Source: Candidatus Omnitrophota bacterium (lineage in GTDB: Bacteria > Omnitrophota > Gorgyraeia > JAUYCX01). From it: DNA of 24,000 bases. The position numbers and the translations under genes are program-made. The notes beneath the pieces are model-generated. The model saw only the letters and a list, made by a program, of their open reading frames with translations, was not told the DNA's origin and did no database searches. Positions 3,574 to 22,534 of the stretch are shown one piece after another (positions within the stretch are counted from its first letter, which is position 1; every line of letters begins with the position of its first letter). The stretch covers positions 60,065-84,064 of the forward strand of contig JAUYCX010000015.1 in the NCBI GenBank assembly GCA_030692045.1, read 5' to 3'.

Positions 3574-3717
3574 TTACTTGTCCTGGTTACTTCCCTCGGA
3601 TACCAATGTTTTAACCTCATAAATGTTTCTATTCTTTCCCTTGTTATAAAGAGTAAGCCCTATGTTAATTAAATTGGTCAATGCTCCCAAAATAACTGTT
3701 GTTATCATCATTCCCAT
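3574..3717 (-). CDS. Candidate small membrane peptide (47 aa)
   Basis: Below the track size cutoff. A strong SD plus ATG (GGGGAGGTAAGAAATG) precedes MGMMITTVILGALTNLINIGLTLYNKGKNRNIYEVKTLVSEGSNQDK: one hydrophobic helix and a charged tail. Confidence 0.35.
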   Translation of the reverse strand: MGMMITTVILGALTNLINIGLTLYNKGKNRNIYEVKTLVSEGSNQDK

Positions 3718-3822
3718 TTCTTACCTCCCCTTATCTTCTTCAACATCTTAATATCTATCCAATATCTGTAAACTAAAAAACTTTTTTAAATTTTAGCTCT
3801 TTTCAGCTCCAAATCTGGCTCA

Positions 3823-4534
3823 AGCGAGCTGTTAGGTTCGTACGCACATTAAATTCTTTGGCAAATGTTTACGAGGAATTGCGGCGAAGTGAATGCAGAA
3901 ACTGACCATTTCGTTTAACAAGTTGTGGGAATTTCTGCAATGAACGAGCCGCAAACCGAAGTAAACGGCAAAGAATTTAGTGCGGTAGAATCCTAACAGC
4001 GAGCTAACTTAGCGTCTGCGAGCGAAAAAGAATTGAGTTGCTTAATAGAAATAACGGGTCCTGTCTTGGTTTGTTTTTCGCCGCACCGCTTGTCCTGCCC
4101 CAGCGAGGCAGGACTGCGCTCGAAGAAAATTTTCGCTCTGCCTGACTTCAATTATGACGGGCAACCCTGCCCGCTCAAATTTTCTAACGTGCGGCTCAAA
4201 TCTAAACCAAGCCATCCGTTAATCATTCAATTTTAGCGGGCTTGTTCAAAAACCTTTAGCAGATTTTAAAGGGGACTTTTTATCCGCCTTAGCAGAAGAC
4301 CACGGGTTTACTCCTAGATGGATGCGAAGAAAAAGCTGCTTCGGCGAGATGTCGCCAAAAAGCAAGCCGGAAACTTGTCAGCGGATAACCCCGACGAGTA
4401 TGCCGAAATTGTCGAAGAGAATTTCGGCATTTCTTACGAGTCGGGGTACATTAAGTTACCACGCCTGCGTGCCGCAACGCCGCACTTCAATGTGCAGGCA
4501 CGGGCTTGCCTGCGGGGCTCCATTGTCCCCTTTT
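3823..4534. ncRNA. GC-enriched, densely self-complementary noncoding block: candidate large structured RNA or nested palindromic-repeat cluster
   Basis: Consecutive helices read directly. (1) A 180-nt irregular hairpin at 3823-4005: GCTGTTAGG/CCTAACAGC, CGCAC.TAAATTCTTTG pairing, GTTTAC/GTAAAC, TGCGGC/GCCGCA, TGCAGAAA/TTTCTGCA. (2) A multi-stem domain at 4065-4211 closed by CTTGGTTT/AAACCAAG and GCCGCAC/GTGCGGC, containing GTCCTGCC/GGCAGGAC and CGGGCA/TGCCCG. (3) A domain at 4280-4388 closed by TTATCCGC/GCGGATAA. (4) A hairpin at 4389-4446: CCCCGAC/GTCGGGG and TGCCGAAATT/AATTTCGGCA. (5) Mutually exclusive GCCTGC/GCAGGC and GCAGGCA/TGCCTGC helices, followed by GGGG..CCCCTTTT. The ORFs called here overlap one another in two frames. 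Confidence 0.5.
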
Positions 4535-4542
4535 GCTGAAAA

Positions 4543-4587
4543 TATATTCGCGTATATTCGCGTTAGATTAGCATGAATTAGCGTTAG
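4543..4587. repeat. Short tandem repeats: TATATTCGCG x2, then ATTAGC-based repeats
   Basis: tatattcgcg tatattcgcg ttag attagca tga attagcg ttag. It abuts and overlaps the purH stop codon. Confidence 0.85.
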
Positions 4588-6140
4588 TGTTTAAAATGCC
4601 TCACACCAGTGGTAATCATCGGCACTCTGGATTTATTGCAGACTTTAATGATTTCCTCGTCGGAAATTGAGCCGCCGGGTTGGATTATCGCGGAAATTCC
4701 TGCCTTAATGGCTAATTTAACTGCATCCTCTTTGGGGAAAAAGGCATCTGATGCCAAAATACTGCCTTTAGCATTTTTGCCGGCTTTTCTTATGGCAATA
4801 ATTACACTTTCTACACGGCTGGTTTGTCCTGGACCAATACCCACAGTTTTTGTACCCTTTGCCAAAACAATAGCATTGGATTTGGTATGCTTAACTACCT
4901 TCCAGGCAAAAAGAAGAGAAGCAATTTGTGCTTTTGTAGGTTTTTTATTTGTGACTGTCTTTAAATCTGACTCTGAGATTTGCTTTGTATCCTTATCCTG
5001 CAAGAGCAATCCTCCGAAAACCTTTTTTAAGTCAAATTCTTCTTTATGGCTCGTTTCAAAAGGCATCTCCAATAGCCGGATATTTTTCTTTTGCTTTAAA
5101 ATCTCTAAAGCCTCCTCTTTAAAGCTCGGCGCAATAATGCATTCTAAAAATCCGCTTTTAGAAATCTCCTTAGCCAAATTTTTATCTACAGCCCTATTTA
5201 TTCCTACAATTCCGCCAAAGGCAGAGAGTTTATCGCTGTCCCAAGCATTTTTGTATGCCTTAATAATATCCTTATCTTCAGCCACACCGCAAGGATTATT
5301 ATGCTTGATAAATACAACTGCTGGATTAGAAAACTCTCTGATTAATTCAAATGCCGCATTTAAATCTAAAATGTTATTAAAGGATAACTCTTTACCGTGC
5401 AGTTGTTTTGCCTTAGCTAAACCAAAACCATTATCCTTCTGAGTATAAAATGCCGCCATCTGATGTGGATTTTCGCCGTAACGTAAATCCTGCAGTTTGG
5501 TAAATCTTAAAATCAAATCCTTAGGCAAGGCAGAAATTTCTTTTGCCTTTAATTTATTGCTTAGAAAATCATAAATTACACTGTCGTAGCGCGAGGTTGA
5601 ATTAAACACCTCAATTGCCAAATTTATTAAAATAGAATCTGAAATAATCCCATTATTATTCTCAAGTTCGGTTAAGATATCCTTGTATCTGGCGGGATTA
5701 CAAATAACTGCCACCCCCTTAAAATTCTTAGCACTTGAGCGCAGCATTGATGGCCCCCCGATATCAATATTTTCAATTGCCTCTTCTAATTTGACATCCT
5801 TTTTTTGAATCACCTTTTCAAAGGGGTATAAATTTATTACCGCCATATCAATAAGCCCGATATTATGCTCTTTTAATTGAGCCAAATGCTCCGGGTTTTC
5901 GCGCAAAGCCAGAAGCCCAGCGTGAATCTTAGGGTGCAAAGTCTTTACTCTTCCGTCGAGCATTTCTGGAAAACCCGTATATTCAGAAACCTCTTTAACT
6001 GGAATTCCTGCCTCTTTAATCATTTTGGCAGTGCCGCCAGTTGAAATAATTTCAATGCCTAATTTGTTTAAGCCTCTGGCAAAATCCACAATGCCGCTTT
6101 TATCAGAAACGCTAATCAATGCGCGCTTAACCTTAATCAT
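4584..6140 (-). CDS. purH: Bifunctional AICAR transformylase / IMP cyclohydrolase
   Basis: 518-aa ORF. N-terminal MGS-like domain (RALISVSDKSG...STGGTAK), and C-terminal AICARFT domain (FGGIVGINR, VLAKG..TVGIGPGQTSRV, ASDAFFP, IIQPGGSI.D). Confidence 0.95.
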   Translation of the reverse strand: MIKVKRALISVSDKSGIVDFARGLNKLGIEIISTGGTAKMIKEAGIPVKEVSEYTGFPEMLDGRVKTLHPKIHAGLLALRENPEHLAQLKEHNIGLIDMAVINLYPFEKVIQKKDVKLEEAIENIDIGGPSMLRSSAKNFKGVAVICNPARYKDILTELENNNGIISDSILINLAIEVFNSTSRYDSVIYDFLSNKLKAKEISALPKDLILRFTKLQDLRYGENPHQMAAFYTQKDNGFGLAKAKQLHGKELSFNNILDLNAAFELIREFSNPAVVFIKHNNPCGVAEDKDIIKAYKNAWDSDKLSAFGGIVGINRAVDKNLAKEISKSGFLECIIAPSFKEEALEILKQKKNIRLLEMPFETSHKEEFDLKKVFGGLLLQDKDTKQISESDLKTVTNKKPTKAQIASLLFAWKVVKHTKSNAIVLAKGTKTVGIGPGQTSRVESVIIAIRKAGKNAKGSILASDAFFPKEDAVKLAIKAGISAIIQPGGSISDEEIIKVCNKSRVPMITTGVRHFKH

Positions 6141-6162
6141 TATTTAACCTCCTTCAATGAGA

Positions 6163-6308
6163 CCACAATTTATGGAACGAAGTGAACATAAATTGTTTGG
6201 TCGAATTGAACCCAGCACTTATTTGTTCAGATTCATATCGCTGTCAAATAAGTGCTGGGTGTAATTCAGCCGAGCGACTTATGTCATTTCATTCCATAAG
6301 TCGCGGCT
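6163..6308. repeat. Three-hairpin palindromic module (copy B) filling the spacer between the YchF-like gene and purH
   Basis: HP1 6163-6200: ACAATTTATG/CATAAATTGT with loop GAACGAAGTGAA. HP2 6199-6271: GAATT..CCCAGCACTTATTTG/CAAATAAGTGCTGGG..AATTC. HP3 6268-6308: AGCCG.CGACTTATG/CATAAGTCG..CGGCT, whose loop reads GAATGAAATGA on the minus strand. Confidence 0.85.
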
Positions 6309-6311
6309 TCA

Positions 6312-7007
6312 TTACACATTAAAACGAAAATTTATAATATCTGCATCTTTGACAATATAATCCTTACTTTCTAAATGCATTGCTCTGGTTTTAGCCTGAT
6401 TAAATCCGCCTAGCTCCTCCACATCCTTAAAATTAAATACCTCTGCTTTAATAAAACCTCTCTGGATATCAGAGTGCACAAAGCCTGCTGCATCAAAAGC
6501 AGTCTGGCCTTTTTTAAGCGGCCAGCTTCTTAATTCATTTTGATTAGAAGTAAAAAAACAAATCATATTGCAAAGTTGATAAATATTTTTAATGGCTGAG
6601 GCGCTGTCATGAAAGTTTTCTTCGGTTAAAAATAAAATCGGCTTTAAGGTTATAAAATTTAAATTCTGGGCAAGCCTTATTTCATTATCGGAGAGGTTAA
6701 GTTCGTTTAAGAGGCTTTCCTTCTCCAATTCTGGCTGGATGCGTTGAAGGAATTCTTTTTCTTGGGCATTACAGCACAGTAACCTATTTTCAATTAATTC
6801 TAAATCCAATAAAATCAAATCTAATTTTTTGGCAGCCAAACTAATTATTCCCTGGCCATCTTTAATTGTCTTTTCATCATTAACTTCCAGCTGCGGGTAG
6901 GTTGTTTTAGGCGGGCGGAGTAATTCCTTTAGCTTATCCAAACGTGCATCAGGAATTATCTTTTTCCCCAGAGGGAAATCTGAAATGCCAAAAACCGAAA
7001 TTTTCAT
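6312..7007 (-). CDS. YchF/OLA1-like protein lacking the P-loop (degenerate G-domain, TGS-like C-terminus retained)
   Basis: 231 aa. The C-terminus GFIKAEVFNFKDV...HLESKDYIVKDADIINFRFNV matches the YchF C-terminal signature. The N-terminus MKISVFGISDFPLGKKI has no GxxxxGK[ST]. The start overlaps the upstream EF-G-like stop (ATGA). Confidence 0.65.
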   Translation of the reverse strand: MKISVFGISDFPLGKKIIPDARLDKLKELLRPPKTTYPQLEVNDEKTIKDGQGIISLAAKKLDLILLDLELIENRLLCCNAQEKEFLQRIQPELEKESLLNELNLSDNEIRLAQNLNFITLKPILFLTEENFHDSASAIKNIYQLCNMICFFTSNQNELRSWPLKKGQTAFDAAGFVHSDIQRGFIKAEVFNFKDVEELGGFNQAKTRAMHLESKDYIVKDADIINFRFNV

Positions 7008-10085: not shown

Positions 10086-10244
10086 GAATACCCTCCTTAT
10101 GTTTTAGAAGAATTTTAACGAGTGGGATACATTTTGAATAAAACAACCTTCACTCACTCCTTAATAATTATTTCATAAGGGGATTATTTGGGTGGGTTAG
10201 CTTAATTTGAATTAAGGGATTAAAAAAAGTGCTTTTGGCTAAAG

Positions 10245-10442
10245 CTAAACAGGTTTTACGCTTGCAGCTTGAAGTCCTTTGGGTGAATTCTTTACTTCAA
10301 ATTCAACTTCCTGTCCTTCAGTCAAGGCAGTGACATCACCGATTAAAGCTGATTTATGCACAAACACATCTTTACCGTCGTCGGTTGTCAAAAAGCCATA
10401 GTTCTTTTTATCATTGTACCACTTGACCTTACCTCTTACCAC
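10245..10442 (-). CDS. csp: Cold-shock protein, CspA family
   Basis: 65 aa. GKVKWYNDKKNYGFL and DVFVHKSAL nucleic-acid-binding motifs. GTG start 7 nt after AGGAGG. Confidence 0.95.
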   Translation of the reverse strand: MVRGKVKWYNDKKNYGFLTTDDGKDVFVHKSALIGDVTALTEGQEVEFEVKNSPKGLQAASVKPV

Positions 10443-10587
10443 CTCTTCGCCTCCTTTTCTCTGATGGTTTAGAATAATAACGCCTCTCTTTACACTCGTA
10501 AAGAAAACCCTCTTTTTGACATTGGCGTTTAAAGAATCTCATCGCCTTCTCAAAATTGTTTTTATCATGGATTTTTACCTCTGCCAT
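10429..10587 (-). CDS. rpsU: 30S ribosomal protein S21
   Basis: Below the track cutoff. My translation is MAEVKIHDKNNFEKAMRFFKRQCQKEGFLYECKERRYYSKPSEKRRRRGGKR (52 aa), which matches the S21 pattern (..V.V..N..FE.A.R.FKR.C.K.G.L.E...R..Y.KPS.KR..). Its 3' end overlaps the csp GTG start by 14 nt. Confidence 0.85.
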   Translation of the reverse strand: MAEVKIHDKNNFEKAMRFFKRQCQKEGFLYECKERRYYSKPSEKRRRRGGKR

Positions 10588-10645
10588 AGTTTTTAATTTT
10601 CGCCCCCAATCTTGTCTCTTTTTTATTCAGCTGCGTAATTGATTT

Positions 10646-10673
10646 ATTATAACTTACCAAAAAATAATGTAAA
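10646..10673 (-). promoter_or_regulatory. Candidate sigma-70 promoter for rpsU-csp
   Basis: The minus strand reads TTTACA, a 16-nt spacer, then TATAAT, about 60 nt upstream of the rpsU ATG. AT-rich background raises the false-positive risk. Confidence 0.4.
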
Positions 10674-10686
10674 TATATTTTTCAGC

Positions 10687-11034
10687 CTAAATTTCTGCTT
10701 CCTTAATTAACCTGCGGTAATATTCTCTACACTCATGACAAGTATTCTTATCCTTATCCCACTTGGGATGGTCTTTTTTTATTAAGTTAATTATATATTC
10801 CTCACTTTTAATATGGGTTAAAGCAACCCTTTCGTCGATTTCTCTTTCGCATATCTGACAGCGGTATTTTCCCGGCGTGTCAGACTCTATTGCCGAATCT
10901 GTCTCTGTCCTTGAATCAGCGCATTTATTGCAAATATCTGGATTGCCCTCTGAAGTGGATACTTTAAAAACTGTTTTAGCAACCTTGCCTAAAAATCCAT
11001 CAAGAGGCACATTACATCTTGCACAGCGGCGCAT
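10687..11034 (-). CDS. Hypothetical zinc-ribbon protein (four CxxC pairs)
   Basis: 115 aa containing CARC, CNKC, CQIC and CHEC. Confidence 0.6.
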   Translation of the reverse strand: MRRCARCNVPLDGFLGKVAKTVFKVSTSEGNPDICNKCADSRTETDSAIESDTPGKYRCQICEREIDERVALTHIKSEEYIINLIKKDHPKWDKDKNTCHECREYYRRLIKEAEI

Positions 11035-11056
11035 TTATAACCTCCTTAATAAGCAG

Positions 11057-11243
11057 ATAACTTACGGAGCGAATGAAATGAGCGACGTAAGTTATAGCGT
11101 CTATCATTTACTTATCTATCAGCGTCTGCGAATTAATCCCGAAGCCTATCCCGAAAATATCGAAGAGATTTTCGGGATGTTTAGGCGAGGGACAAATTCA
11201 GCCAACAAACTTACGTTCGACTTACGTCTCCGTAAGTTTGGGC
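11057..11243. repeat. Three-hairpin palindromic module (copy C), homologous to 6163-6308
   Basis: HP1 11057-11095: ATAACTTACG/CGTAAGTTAT with a loop containing GAATGAAATGA. HP2 11130-11199: GAATT..ATCCCGAAAAT/ATTTTCGGGAT..AATTC with loop ATCGAAGAG. HP3 11201-11243: CAAACTTACG/CGTAAGTTTG. HP1 and HP3 are inverted copies of each other (both contain AACTTACGGAG....CGTAAGTT). Confidence 0.85.
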
Positions 11244-11248
11244 TTCAT

Positions 11249-11605
11249 TTAACCTAATTTATCAATCTTGGCAGCTAAAATAAAATCATTTTCAGACAAA
11301 CCGCCAATAGCATGCGTGGTAGCTGTAAGCTTCACCTTGTTATAATTAATCAAAATTGTAGGGTGATGGCCTTCTTGCTCGGCAATCTTTGCCACATTAT
11401 TTACAAAATCAAGGGAAGCTGAGAAATTCTTGAATTTAAATTCTTTTCTTATTTTGTTACCTTCTACCAATTCCCAGCCTGAAATCTGTGTTAAGAATTT
11501 ATTTGCCTCATCTAAAGTTAATGGCGGCATACCGCCTTCGCAGGGCTTACATTTTTTAGAAGAAAGGTCTATTTCGCAGGTTTTACCTATGTTTTTATCT
11601 TCCAT
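11249..11605 (-). CDS. Pterin-4-alpha-carbinolamine dehydratase (PCD/DCoH family)
   Basis: 118 aa. The EGHHPTILINYNKVKLTATTH core is typical of PCD, as is GWELVEGNKIRKEFKFKNF. Confidence 0.85.
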   Translation of the reverse strand: MEDKNIGKTCEIDLSSKKCKPCEGGMPPLTLDEANKFLTQISGWELVEGNKIRKEFKFKNFSASLDFVNNVAKIAEQEGHHPTILINYNKVKLTATTHAIGGLSENDFILAAKIDKLG

Positions 11606-16350: not shown

Positions 16351-16380
16351 TTTAGTTTATAAATATTGAAAGTTTATTAG

Positions 16381-16475
16381 AACACGAATTTATACTAACC
16401 CAACACGAATTCTCACGAATAATCCTATCAAATAATTCGTATAAATTTGTGTGTAATTCGTGTGAATTTGTGTTA
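16381..16475. promoter_or_regulatory. Cluster of about 7 direct and inverted ACACGAATT / AATTCGTGT motifs; candidate operator array
   Basis: aACACGAATTtatac..aACACGAATTctCACGAATAa..tAATTCGTATaAATTTGTGTgtAATTCGTGTgAATTTGTGTt. Located 30-125 nt upstream of the first ATP-grasp gene. Confidence 0.4.
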
Positions 16476-16497
16476 AAAACTTGTTTTCTCATCTCGC

Positions 16498-16534
16498 ATT
16501 AAAATAAAAAAGGACACCCCCCTCCTTGTGTCCT
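16498..16534 (-). terminator. Candidate intrinsic terminator downstream of the NRAMP gene
   Basis: The minus strand reads AGGACAC-aaggagggggg-GTGTCCT followed by TTTTTTATTTT. It lies about 260 nt after the stop codon, which is rather far. Confidence 0.45.
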
Positions 16535-16794
16535 CTTAAAAGCAACCAAATTTTTCCAACTTAACTTATTTAACCCCCTTCGGCGTTAATTGATTTACTT
16601 ATTTTTAATTACAATTTTATTTTTTCATATACAGATATGTTTGTCAAGGTTTTTTAGAAAATTTTTTATTTTTTTATTCTAAGATATCGACGAATAAAAT
16701 AAATCTTTGATTTTCTATATACAAAAATGATTTTTTAAGTTTAATTCTTTCAGAAAGAGATTATTAAAATAATTTTAAAACTTGGAAAGGAATA

Positions 16795-21094: not shown

Positions 21095-21275
21095 GTAGAT
21101 TTAATATAATACTTGTTGAGGTTAGTCAATTTTTGGCTAACTAAAAAGGTAAACCAATCTTCCTTAAAGATAAAGGAAGACCCCGGAGTATTGTCGGGGG
21201 CCGTAAGGATGGGGCACAAAGCTAAAGGGTCCGCCAAATAAATTTGGCGAGACAGCCAGCTGCCAACAGGATAAT
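21095..21275 (+). promoter_or_regulatory. Structured 5' leader, candidate riboswitch or attenuator sensor domain (class unassigned)
   Basis: Hairpins at 21157-21179 (TCTTCCTT/AAGGAAGA) and 21180-21200 (CCCCGG../..CGGGGG), and an irregular 52-nt hairpin at 21213-21264 with apical stem CGCCAAA-TAAA-TTTGGCG. AUGGG at 21209-21213 can pair with CCCAU in the 5' arm of the terminator. Confidence 0.4.
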
Positions 21276-21316
21276 AAAAAACCCATTCTTTAGGCAAATG
21301 AATGGGTTTTTGTTTT
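21276..21316 (+). terminator. Intrinsic terminator immediately upstream of the pilin SD and start codon (expression platform)
   Basis: AAAAACCCATTC-loop-GAATGGGTTTTTGTTTT, followed directly by the AAAGGAG SD and the ATG at 21329. No upstream plus-strand gene exists for it to terminate. Confidence 0.7.
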
Positions 21317-21328
21317 AAAGGAGTGGCG

Positions 21329-22534
21329 ATGAAAAAAATTGCTATAAGAAACGAGGGTTTCACTTTGGTTGAAGTATTAGTTTCCACAGTGATTGCCGTA
21401 TTTATGGCAATTATTCTGTTGGGTTTGTTTCTGGTGGGCAGAAATTCCTGGTCAACAGGCGCAGTTTATATTGACCTGCAACAACAAGCGCGCCGGGCAA
21501 TGGATGCAATGGTTTGGGAATTAGCGCAAACTGGTATTGACTTAACTCAAGCAGTTGAGGTTAAGATACTTCCTTGCTCAAACAGCGATAACGAACCTCC
21601 AGAAGCCATCTGTTCAGGAGAAATGGTTTCCTTCAGTATACCAATAAGCACACCAGAGGACATTGGTTATACCATCTATAAACCAGATGGCACAATTAAG
21701 TGGGGTGATAAGGAAACTAGCCCTCTCAACCCTCTGGAACAAGCGGGAACAGAGGGCCGCACAATTAATTTTTATGTAGCAAAGCCTCCCTCAACTGATC
21801 CCTCAAAAACACTGGTTAGGCGAAGTTGGATTCAAACAGGCGTTGGCTGTTTCTTAGCCGGAACCACTATTTTGATGGCTGATTCAACACTTAGGCCTAT
21901 TGAACAGCTTAAAACAGGCGATGAGATTATGGCTTTTGATGAAGACTCAAAAGCCCTTGTTAAAGATAGGGTTAGCAAATTTTTTCAACACACGGCAGAT
22001 GAATATTTAATTATTAACCATAAAATTAAGCTTACAGCCAATCACCCTGTTTATTCTAATGGTAAGTGGTTAGAAATAGGCGTATTAAAAAAAGGAGATG
22101 CTTTGTTCAACTCTGAAGGCAAGCCAGAAATAATCAAAGATATAAAGAAGATTCGGGAAAAAGTTAAGGTCTACAATATCGAGGTTAATCCCTATCATAA
22201 TTATTTTGCCGGTGGGATATTGGCGCATAATAAACCTTTGCCTCCAGAAGAAATCCCCCGACCGCCTTGCGAGTGGTGCAAATTATGGGATGATTTTCTG
22301 TTTGTTAAAGAGGCCTTTGCAGTTGGAGGTGGAGGGGGAGCTACTTATGATATTACAAGGAAATATTTAGCATCTGATATTACTGAGGTAAATTTTGCAG
22401 GCTTTACAAGCTCAGGCGGTTCTACTGACACAAACCCAGATTTAATTGAAATTACTGTTACGGCAGAAAAAACAGCCCTTGCGGGAGGCAATATAACTTT
22501 ATCTCTAAAATCCCGAGTGACCTTGAAGAATTAA
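21329..22534 (+). CDS. Type IV pilin-like minor (pseudo)pilin carrying an internal Hint/intein-like domain
   Basis: Prepilin class-III signal MKKIAIRNEG/FTLVEVLVSTVIAVFMAIILLGL. PilW/GspJ-like segments (QQQARRAMDAMVWELAQTG at the N-end, ITLSLKSRVTLKN at the C-end). I chose the ATG at 21329 (SD AAAGGAG) rather than the track start at 21302, which lies inside the terminator hairpin. Confidence 0.85.
   Translation: MKKIAIRNEGFTLVEVLVSTVIAVFMAIILLGLFLVGRNSWSTGAVYIDLQQQARRAMDAMVWELAQTGIDLTQAVEVKILPCSNSDNEPPEAICSGEMVSFSIPISTPEDIGYTIYKPDGTIKWGDKETSPLNPLEQAGTEGRTINFYVAKPPSTDPSKTLVRRSWIQTGVGCFLAGTTILMADSTLRPIEQLKTGDEIMAFDEDSKALVKDRVSKFFQHTADEYLIINHKIKLTANHPVYSNGKWLEIGVLKKGDALFNSEGKPEIIKDIKKIREKVKVYNIEVNPYHNYFAGGILAHNKPLPPEEIPRPPCEWCKLWDDFLFVKEAFAVGGGGGATYDITRKYLASDITEVNFAGFTSSGGSTDTNPDLIEITVTAEKTALAGGNITLSLKSRVTLKN
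21848..22231 (+). other. Mini Hint domain (128 aa; bacterial intein-like) embedded in the pilin
   Basis: CFLAGTTILMADS (Cys1, block A), KLTANHPV (TxxH, block B), VYNIEVNPYHNYFAGGILAHN (blocks F/G, terminal HN). The next residue is Lys. There is no endonuclease insert. Confidence 0.8.

Follow-up and report, generated by a model that had tools for sequence, protein, structure and literature searches.

Several described repeat families resemble the GC-enriched, self-complementary block that occupies positions 3823-4534 of a 24,000-nt stretch of the genome of a Candidatus Omnitrophota bacterium (contig JAUYCX010000015.1; this whole stretch is referred to as the window). Repetitive extragenic palindromic (REP) units of enterobacteria are simple palindromes of 20-40 bp. 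[quoted passage not shown] The HEARO and IscB omega RNA families are in Rfam. Integron attC sites, with their RYYYAAC/GTTRRRY cores, are arrayed next to intI in a single orientation, while the ends of IS200/IS605 elements are not mutual inverted repeats. Small-celled bacteria make up the uncultured phylum Omnitrophota, and a full-text literature search found no papers on Omnitrophota repeats or non-coding elements. REP units are tagged by a GTAG or CGTC tetranucleotide at one stem foot (Di Nocera et al., PMC3733652). The comparison with REP and REPIN sequences made here draws in part on that study and on the preprint of Bertels and Rainey (10.1101/2021.07.10.451892).

On balance, we interpret the block as a mosaic of structured repeats that are dispersed and belong to new families, clustered in the gap between purH and an ORFan gene. 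It is comparable to a bacterial interspersed mosaic element (BIME) or to nested MITEs, but its unit families are new and much larger. At least four independently folding modules (D1, D2, D3 and D4) and the short hairpins D5-D7 have, by this somewhat favored account, accumulated between purH and the small ORFan gene. The modules are as follows.

3818-4017, minus strand: D1, an imperfect long hairpin of about 200 nt belonging to a dispersed family (profile nhmmer match 4017-3818, E 3.8e-32).
4050-4223, minus strand: D2, a 175-nt three-way-junction element (nhmmer match to L029, E 3.7e-7; model R1; alignment A1).
4282-4386, no strand assigned: D3, three stems closed by ATCCGC/GCGGAT, based on folds.
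4387-4448, no strand assigned: D4, a 60-nt hairpin of the same family as the center of the module at 11035-11248 and as L032 2186-2256.
4447-4534, no strand assigned: D5-D7, a set of short GC-rich hairpins, three in number, of which two exclude each other and the last (4514-4534) is terminator-like on the plus strand.

Here and below, L-numbers denote comparison loci. The block was first searched against 80 purH loci from genomes, to which metagenome loci were then added, and the nhmmer search for relatives of the domains covered 1.9 Mb of related loci. D2, D1 and D4 are each found in multiple places and in either orientation, D2 also in inverted pairs; the occupancy of the purH flanks is variable, and the paired positions covary. 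The initial annotation had proposed a candidate large structured RNA. Its structure is indeed non-random, and in D1, D2 and D4 it is conserved and covarying, but the block is not one multi-domain RNA gene.

The block is similar to REP/BIME sequences and the REPIN-RAYT system in being intergenic and multi-copy, in occurring in either orientation with its complementarity kept, and in forming inverted doublets. Mosaic clusters within one gap and long vertical persistence are further common features, and REP stem-loops can act as transcript barriers. The units are, however, about 60 nt (D4), 175 nt (D2) and 200 nt (D1) long rather than 20-40-bp palindromes, and by inspection they carry no GTAG/CGTC, their termini being TTTAGCGGGT (D2), ATTTTGCTGCGGG (D1) and GTACCCCGAC (D4). 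In contrast to the simple palindromes of REP, D2 is a three-way junction with invariant loops. The ERIC, Correia, BOX and RUP MITEs are likewise modular or palindromic intergenic units kept between species, and the A-B-C modules of BOX are like modules A and B of the window (see below); however, they show no sequence relationship to the block, and D2 is not a simple hairpin. We know of no autonomous parent element for the block repeats. Like HEARO and IscB omega RNA, D2 is a complex covarying element, present in multiple copies scattered among unrelated genes. Unlike them, it has neither an Rfam match nor an adjacent nuclease or transposase ORF, its termini are complementary and its copies form inverted pairs. 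With integron attC sites and IS200/IS605 ends, D2 shares stems that conserve structure over sequence, strict Watson-Crick pairing and ORFan cassette-like neighbors, and by this analogy the conserved unpaired bases could be protein contacts. Neither the array pattern of attC nor the end pattern of IS200/IS605 was seen in D2.

D2 provides the richest evidence. Its counterpart at L029 7372-7200 lies between two unrelated genes. A search pattern of 20 bases (CGCTGGGGCA-N24-36-GACAGGACCC), built on the two copies known at that point, matched at least 120 metagenome loci. When the comparison loci were rescanned with it, the gap was exactly 30 in 98 of 123 matches, and a 5′ GGRTGG motif stood at the expected distance in 94 matches. 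Alignment A1 comprises 83 distinct copies. The closing stem P1 (TTTAGCGGGT / ACCCGCTAAA) is followed by the internal loop GG / GACAGG, the coaxial helices P2/P2b/P3, the junction arm P4-P5 and the hairpin P6 with the loop ACGCTGG. About 45 columns of A1 are invariant and mostly unpaired, five GAGCG-like motifs being among them; the invariant motifs include GG/GACAGG, GAGCGGGCA and GAGAGCGA. Counted on the structure derived in the same analysis, 91.4% of cells were paired (80.8% in shuffles), 36 of 52 pairs changed on both sides, and the covariation score was 0.289 against 0.112 in shuffles, a value reached by 0 of 500 shuffles (slid controls: 0.04-0.07). P1 was 94.6% paired, indicating that terminal inverted repeats are present. 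The window copy scored 154.8 bits with model R1, in whose training set it was included. It keeps the loops and swaps whole stems, with GCCGCAC for GCGGGGC in P3, AGAAAAUUU for GGAACCC in P4 and GUCC for UUUU in P6. A search of consensus-like D1/D2 copies (L095, L117 and seven other loci) against Rfam yielded only rRNA and tRNA.

Among the matches listed, the genes beside D2 were unrelated (queH, a LOG-like gene, ybaB, lysS, tmk, a xerC-like gene and others), and between co-directional genes D2 was in sense orientation 27 times and in antisense orientation 31 times. A riboswitch or cis-regulatory leader role of D2 was rejected because of this diversity of downstream neighbors and random orientation. 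The 3′ end of D2 is mostly 1-60 nt off a gene boundary, with the larger gap on the 5′ side, and copies are often only 1-40 nt from both neighboring genes. D2 is flanked by TTTTA...TAAAA, that is, by a 5′ T-run and a 3′ A-run that prolong the inverted repeat. A stand-alone sRNA gene is likewise not supported, as the T-run is 5′ and the A-run 3′ in place of a stem followed by a U-run terminator, in addition to the close spacing to both neighbors.

Model R1 detected about 15 further D2 copies on the same contigs, or about one per 45 kb beyond the seeds, although a copy number per complete genome is an extrapolation only. Ten of the 12 neighboring D2 pairs were in the (-,+) head-to-head arrangement, for which 25% was expected, with the 5′ ends facing each other, the 3′ ends outward and a distance of 12 nt to 4 kb. 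Where the two copies are separated by more than about 400 nt, the DNA between them mostly holds ORFan genes of low GC content without Pfam match, and no transposase was seen among the ORFs between D2 pairs. Divergent, cassette-like pairs were observed at L163, L125, L087/L124, L202, L185, L103, L111, L104, L130 and L199. D1 and D2 were on the same strand in all 15 loci with both, and D1 was located 5′ of D2, and thus inside the pairs, in 14 of them, often just 3-60 nt away. The order D2 then D1 in the window departs from the other 14 loci; therefore, the order of the modules is not fixed. L104 9311-9759 and L132 1425-1867 share a 455-nt unit, composed of D2 and a gene for 77 aa (MPYDSSLDEQLFTKDWEDEG...), at 86% identity between otherwise unrelated flanks, and the similarity stops exactly at the 5′ boundary of D2. 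Only two matches of the D2 pattern were found in viral contigs, and the family is therefore not phage-borne.

Two side observations concern the surroundings of D2. At L185 (about 1380-1480), a small membrane-type peptide (MKIALVVIIVLAVGLLLCKKFCKSCC...) is encoded between a divergent D2 pair and is similar to the product of the 47-aa ORF at 3574-3717 of the window; both could be small toxin-like or membrane peptides tied to these elements. In about one fifth of the copies, for example at L083, L100, L121, L125 and L087, the motif CGCTCGAAAAnCGCCAGATTCATTT or its reverse complement lies 8-35 nt from D2, and it appears to be an arm of another long-hairpin family with AAATGAAT...ATTCATTT termini.

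D1 and D4 are dispersed as well. The profile search of genome and metagenome loci revealed 16 relatives of D1 (E down to 4e-52), and a counterpart lies upstream of purH in L030. The D1 consensus has 29 pairs, 13 of them with compensatory change, and conserved asymmetric internal loops (TTTGCC-GTNNAC / GTNNAC-NTT-TGCC-AAA). D1 contains the inverted repeats I1 and I3 and folds with −79 kcal/mol on the plus and −69 kcal/mol on the minus strand, a difference of which G-U pairs are not the cause. As the initial annotation had claimed, the D4 hairpin at 4389-4446 is homologous to 11130-11199, with 78% identity over 55 nt (E 2.7e-6) and compensatory changes in its pairs. D4 matches 11126-11203 of the window and L032 (E 5e-7), where the hairpin lies upstream of purH in reversed orientation to this gene. 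Seven of its 23 pairs are compensatory.

These data also bear on a coding origin of the block, which would then be either a pseudogene, left from a decayed or foreign coding sequence, or a small gene corresponding to the ORF of 73 aa or 84 aa, its GC content reflecting horizontal origin. ORFs are present at 4318-4539 and 4322-4576, and a peptide-like likeness of NPDEYAEIVEENFG to NPEAYPENIEEIFG links D4 with module B. This likeness, however, falls in the hairpin with compensatory changes, and the L032 copy is in opposite orientation and carries a 1-nt indel in its loop, which makes coding by D4 unlikely. The ORFs in the block overlap and are all short, with 73 aa and 84 aa for those in two frames and 52-67 aa for others on either strand, and stops occur in every frame across D1-D3. 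None of the ORFs had a Pfam match when all were scanned, in agreement with the earlier judgment that no ORF is credible, and blastn found no match of the block in phage and plasmid collections. Overall, a coding remnant is a most improbable explanation.

The neighborhood of the block was then considered. The window is gene-dense, with a GC content of about 35%, and its genes are on the minus strand almost throughout up to 21 kb. The block lies in the 866-nt gap from the purH stop to the start of a 47-aa ORF.

4584-6140, minus strand: purH, with its stop codon at 4584 facing the block.
3574-3717, minus strand: 47-aa ORF, hydrophobic, with its start facing the block, a strong Shine-Dalgarno (SD) sequence GGGGAGG and no Pfam match.
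4543-4563, no strand assigned: tandem 10-mer TATATTCGCG in two copies, between the block and the purH stop codon.

The 47-aa ORF is followed by a 207-aa ORFan without Pfam match, for whose protein a metagenome scan found no relatives. The region 2452-2818 was tried as a second boundary of the ORFan island and rejected, being unstructured (z 0.14) and having CCAGAT repeats not above chance. The closest relatives of purH, at 60-68% identity, are from Candidatus Omnitrophota metagenome-assembled genomes. Around purH, the intergenic gaps are mostly 0-30 nt on either side in about 55 Omnitrophota loci. A subset of the loci has inserts of 70-620 nt that are of differing families and strongly structured (z −4 to −12.5 relative to shuffles), such as D1 in L030, the D4-type hairpin in L032 and, in L020 and L024, hairpins of the leader type. 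Therefore, the 866-nt gap in the window represents an insertion cluster and not an ancestral gene. L001 and L082 (Logan contigs, SRR13727536), the only public contigs with the flanking genes, break inside the block at about 3853 and 4120, and contig ends in its D1/D2 region are consistent with assembly breaks induced by repeats or palindromes.

The composition and folding of the block had led to the suggestion of one structured non-coding RNA gene of about 0.7 kb on the plus strand, ending at a GGGG..CCCCTTTT terminator. Several features are in its favor and were borne out. The GC content is 0.48 over 3900-4650 and 0.30-0.37 in the flanks, a clear enrichment in an AT-rich genome. The minimum free energy of 3800-4560 is −280.7 kcal/mol on the plus and −280.0 kcal/mol on the minus strand, compared with about −222 kcal/mol for shuffles (z −8.4 and −9.2). 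Consecutive self-closed domains were found by inverted repeats and folding at 3823-4005, about 4040-4245, 4282-4386, 4387-4448 and 4447-4491. The two 3′ hairpins are mutually exclusive, as had been noticed, because the two copies of GCCTGC (4463-4468 and 4507-4512) compete for a single GCAGGC (4494-4499). Besides the lack of a credible ORF, the block had nothing in Rfam at gathering score and only noise at E ≤ 10, with no known RNA family matching. The families of Rfam 15 tried and rejected at gathering threshold include RNase P, tmRNA, SRP, 6S, OLE, GOLLD, ROOL, HEARO and raiA, as well as group I/II introns and riboswitches, and a scan found no tRNA or tmRNA genes. The terminator-like site GGGGCTCCATTGTCCCCTTTT at 4514-4534, a stem with a T-run on the plus strand, is present as described.

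That site is weak, however, with a stem of only five pairs, and no promoter-like site was found upstream of the block on the plus strand. D1 and D2 are here on the minus strand by the strand convention of the D2 model. The 0.7-kb unit as a whole was found nowhere else, and its orthologous position is empty in most relatives. D1, D2 and D4 occur elsewhere as separate units, reordered and in places unrelated to each other. A single RNA gene is thus very unlikely, and the observations agree better with separate repeats.

A more serious alternative, which we nevertheless consider rather unlikely, is that the modules, and in particular D1 and D2, are a new class of functional RNA (a cis leader, 3′-untranslated-region structure, protein-binding scaffold or ribozyme). 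The block would then be a transcribed string of such domains from purH to the next gene, and the spread of the repeats would be secondary. The strong covariation in the multi-helix junction of D2 speaks for this, and so do the loop nucleotides that stay invariant across D2 subfamilies with fully replaced stems, the strict co-orientation of D1 and D2 and the conserved asymmetric internal loops of D1. Three further observations argue for functional RNA and at the same time weigh against a cluster of dispersed repeats. First, 15 of the 27 D2 copies in sense orientation have a start codon at a distance of 9-25 nt from their 3′ end, which is leader-like. Second, D2 lies upstream of orthologous genes in several species with an identity of 0.77-0.89, compared with 0.46-0.58 at third codon positions, which are near saturation. 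Purifying selection of this kind, acting where the sites are orthologous, suggests that D2 has a function and is not a selfish element in decay. One closely related pair showed the reverse (gene 0.95, D2 0.83), which suggests that D2 was replaced or gene-converted by another subfamily. Third, G-U pairs exceed A-C pairs (34 vs 7) in P2-P3, the best-aligned helix, which hints at one functional strand.

Other points also count against dispersed repeats. No transposase or RAYT-like gene was found among the ORFs scanned, which covered 24 kb of this genome and fragments of others. Inspection of the D2 flanks revealed no consistent direct repeat that would mark a target-site duplication. In 1.15 Mb of genome loci D2 is rare, with only three matches (the window, L029 and, weakly, L056). 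With its three-way junction and wealth of invariant columns, D2 is far more elaborate than known REP or MITE sequences, and the nhmmer search found no relatives of D3 and D5-D7.

Against functional RNA, on the other hand, half of the D2 copies are antisense to both neighbors, and the 1-60 nt left over would not accommodate a promoter or terminator. The T-run, stem and A-run of D2 correspond to a terminator in reverse, the neighboring genes are unrelated, and the inverted D2 pairs are hard to account for. G-U pairs are rare in D2 and overall (66) not above A-C (96), and the strand test gives a mixed result. The scarcity of G-U pairs and the equal folding of both strands count in favor of dispersed repeats. 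The initial annotation had named homologues without covariation beyond that of mobile palindromic DNA repeats as an outcome that would speak against an RNA: the distribution of the modules is that of such repeats, but their covariation is stronger and more elaborate than that of a simple palindrome.

Under the interpretation as a mosaic of dispersed repeats, the modules would be non-autonomous elements copied by a trans-acting enzyme that reads the folded single strand or the terminal inverted repeats. Enzyme recognition of the folded strand or termini would explain the pairing maintained by double substitutions, the invariant loops and the vertical persistence, as in REPIN-RAYT. Once included in purH mRNA, the stable stems may act passively as decay barriers or transcript insulators. 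As a tentative proposal, D2, usually preceded by D1, may be an undescribed class of structured nucleic acid with tens of copies per Omnitrophota-like genome and divergent pairs around ORFan genes. Such a class could serve as the terminus, in the form of a folded single strand, of a mobile gene cassette of a new kind, or it could be a functional RNA of a new type (ribozyme or ribonucleoprotein scaffold) carried around the genome.

Between the modules of the block, two short segments were also recognized.

4006-4049, minus strand: linker carrying TCGCAGACGCT at 4011-4021.
4229-4241, minus strand: GCCCGCTAAAATT, just 5′ of D2 on the sense strand and similar to ACCCGCTAAAA, the 3′ terminus of D2 copies.

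GCCCGCTAAAATT can pair with the invariant D2 loop GAGCGGGC at 4169-4181 (inverted repeat I6, 13 nt, 92%) and, from its sequence, may be a remnant of a second D2 copy. The 3′ strand of D2, ACCCGCT, has the P1 5′ strand AGCGGGT and the loop GAGCGGGCA as alternative partners. The linker motif recurs as AATTCGCAGACG(CT) in leader modules, at 11121-11131 of the window, in L003 and L024 and three times in L070. An 11-mer shared by 4011-4021 and 11121-11131 had been taken as a sign of homology; by itself the match is at chance level, since about eight are expected (~700 × 46,600 / 4^11) and many 11-13-mers are common to the block and the window. It gains weight solely from the recurrence of AATTCGCAGACG in further Omnitrophota loci. 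The proposed homology of the block to 6163-6308 is an indirect link: a direct match to the block was not found, and that module and the one at 11035-11248 both match L003 11648-11841.

These two leader modules are related to the block through fragments only, namely TCGCAGACGCT at 4011-4021 and the D4 hairpin.

6141-6311, minus strand: module A, filling the gap between the stop codon of 6312-7007 and the purH SD (nhmmer match to L003, E 2.7e-7).
11035-11248, minus strand: module B, extending between the 11249-11605 stop codon and the SD that belongs to 10687-11034, with a D4-type central hairpin (nhmmer matches to L157, E 4.8e-18, and L003, E 1.8e-9).

On the minus strand, both modules follow a common grammar: the stop codon and (T)AAATGAAGCC, then a hairpin, GGCTGAATT, a long hairpin and AATTCG(CAGACGCT), then the first hairpin again in inverted form, YTGCTCATTGAAGGAGG, 6-7 nt and ATG. 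The order in module A is TAATGAAGCC, a hairpin, GGCTGAATT, a long hairpin and AATTCGACC, then the inverted counterpart of the first hairpin, GGTCTCATTGAAGGAGG and ATG, and the whole folds as one 150-nt near-palindrome (−68 to −76 kcal/mol). The ends of the modules, AATGAAGCC / GGTCTCATT, are terminal inverted repeats. Their 3′ half, made up of AATTC, a covarying hairpin, TCATTRA, an SD and ATG, also stands before genes in L003, L020, L024, L044 and L070, and L044 holds two near-identical copies of it. In modules A and B, the upstream stop codon lies within TAAATGAAGCC and the downstream SD within CTCATTGAAGGAGG. The module ends AATGA and TCATT can pair, and such pairing would place the stop codon close to the SD. 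AYGGA in the first hairpin loop of modules A and B and ACAGGA in D2 resemble CsrA sites in sequence and are candidates only. At L070 8570-8700, three tandem 45-nt repeats, each with AATTCGCAGACGGCTAACGCC, are preceded by a sigma-70-like promoter and followed by a hairpin and then CTGCTCATTAGGAGG and ATG.

Elsewhere in the window, a c-di-GMP-I riboswitch aptamer (21138-21267, plus strand; 43.5 bits against a gathering score of 35) is located directly 5′ of a 410-aa ORF (21302-22534), and it is the sole Rfam match in the window at gathering score. A 440-nt gap at 16351-16794 with an extremely low GC content (0.19-0.23) shows partial similarity to DNA between genes in L015, L025 and L059. Within 10086-10876, a stretch matches L002 9001-9464 with 72% identity over 133 nt; it probably represents a small gene that lacks annotation.

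The window shows that intergenic spaces of Omnitrophota can hold modular, strongly structured repeats. Such clusters mimic large non-coding RNA genes in screens based on GC content and structure, and they break short-read assemblies. D2 is abundant in sediment and freshwater metagenomes and missing from Rfam, with covariation as convincing as that of accepted RNA motifs. If D2 is RNA, it would represent a new class that is directly testable; if it is the terminus of a mobile element, it would point to a new transposition or recombination system that moves ORFan cassettes.

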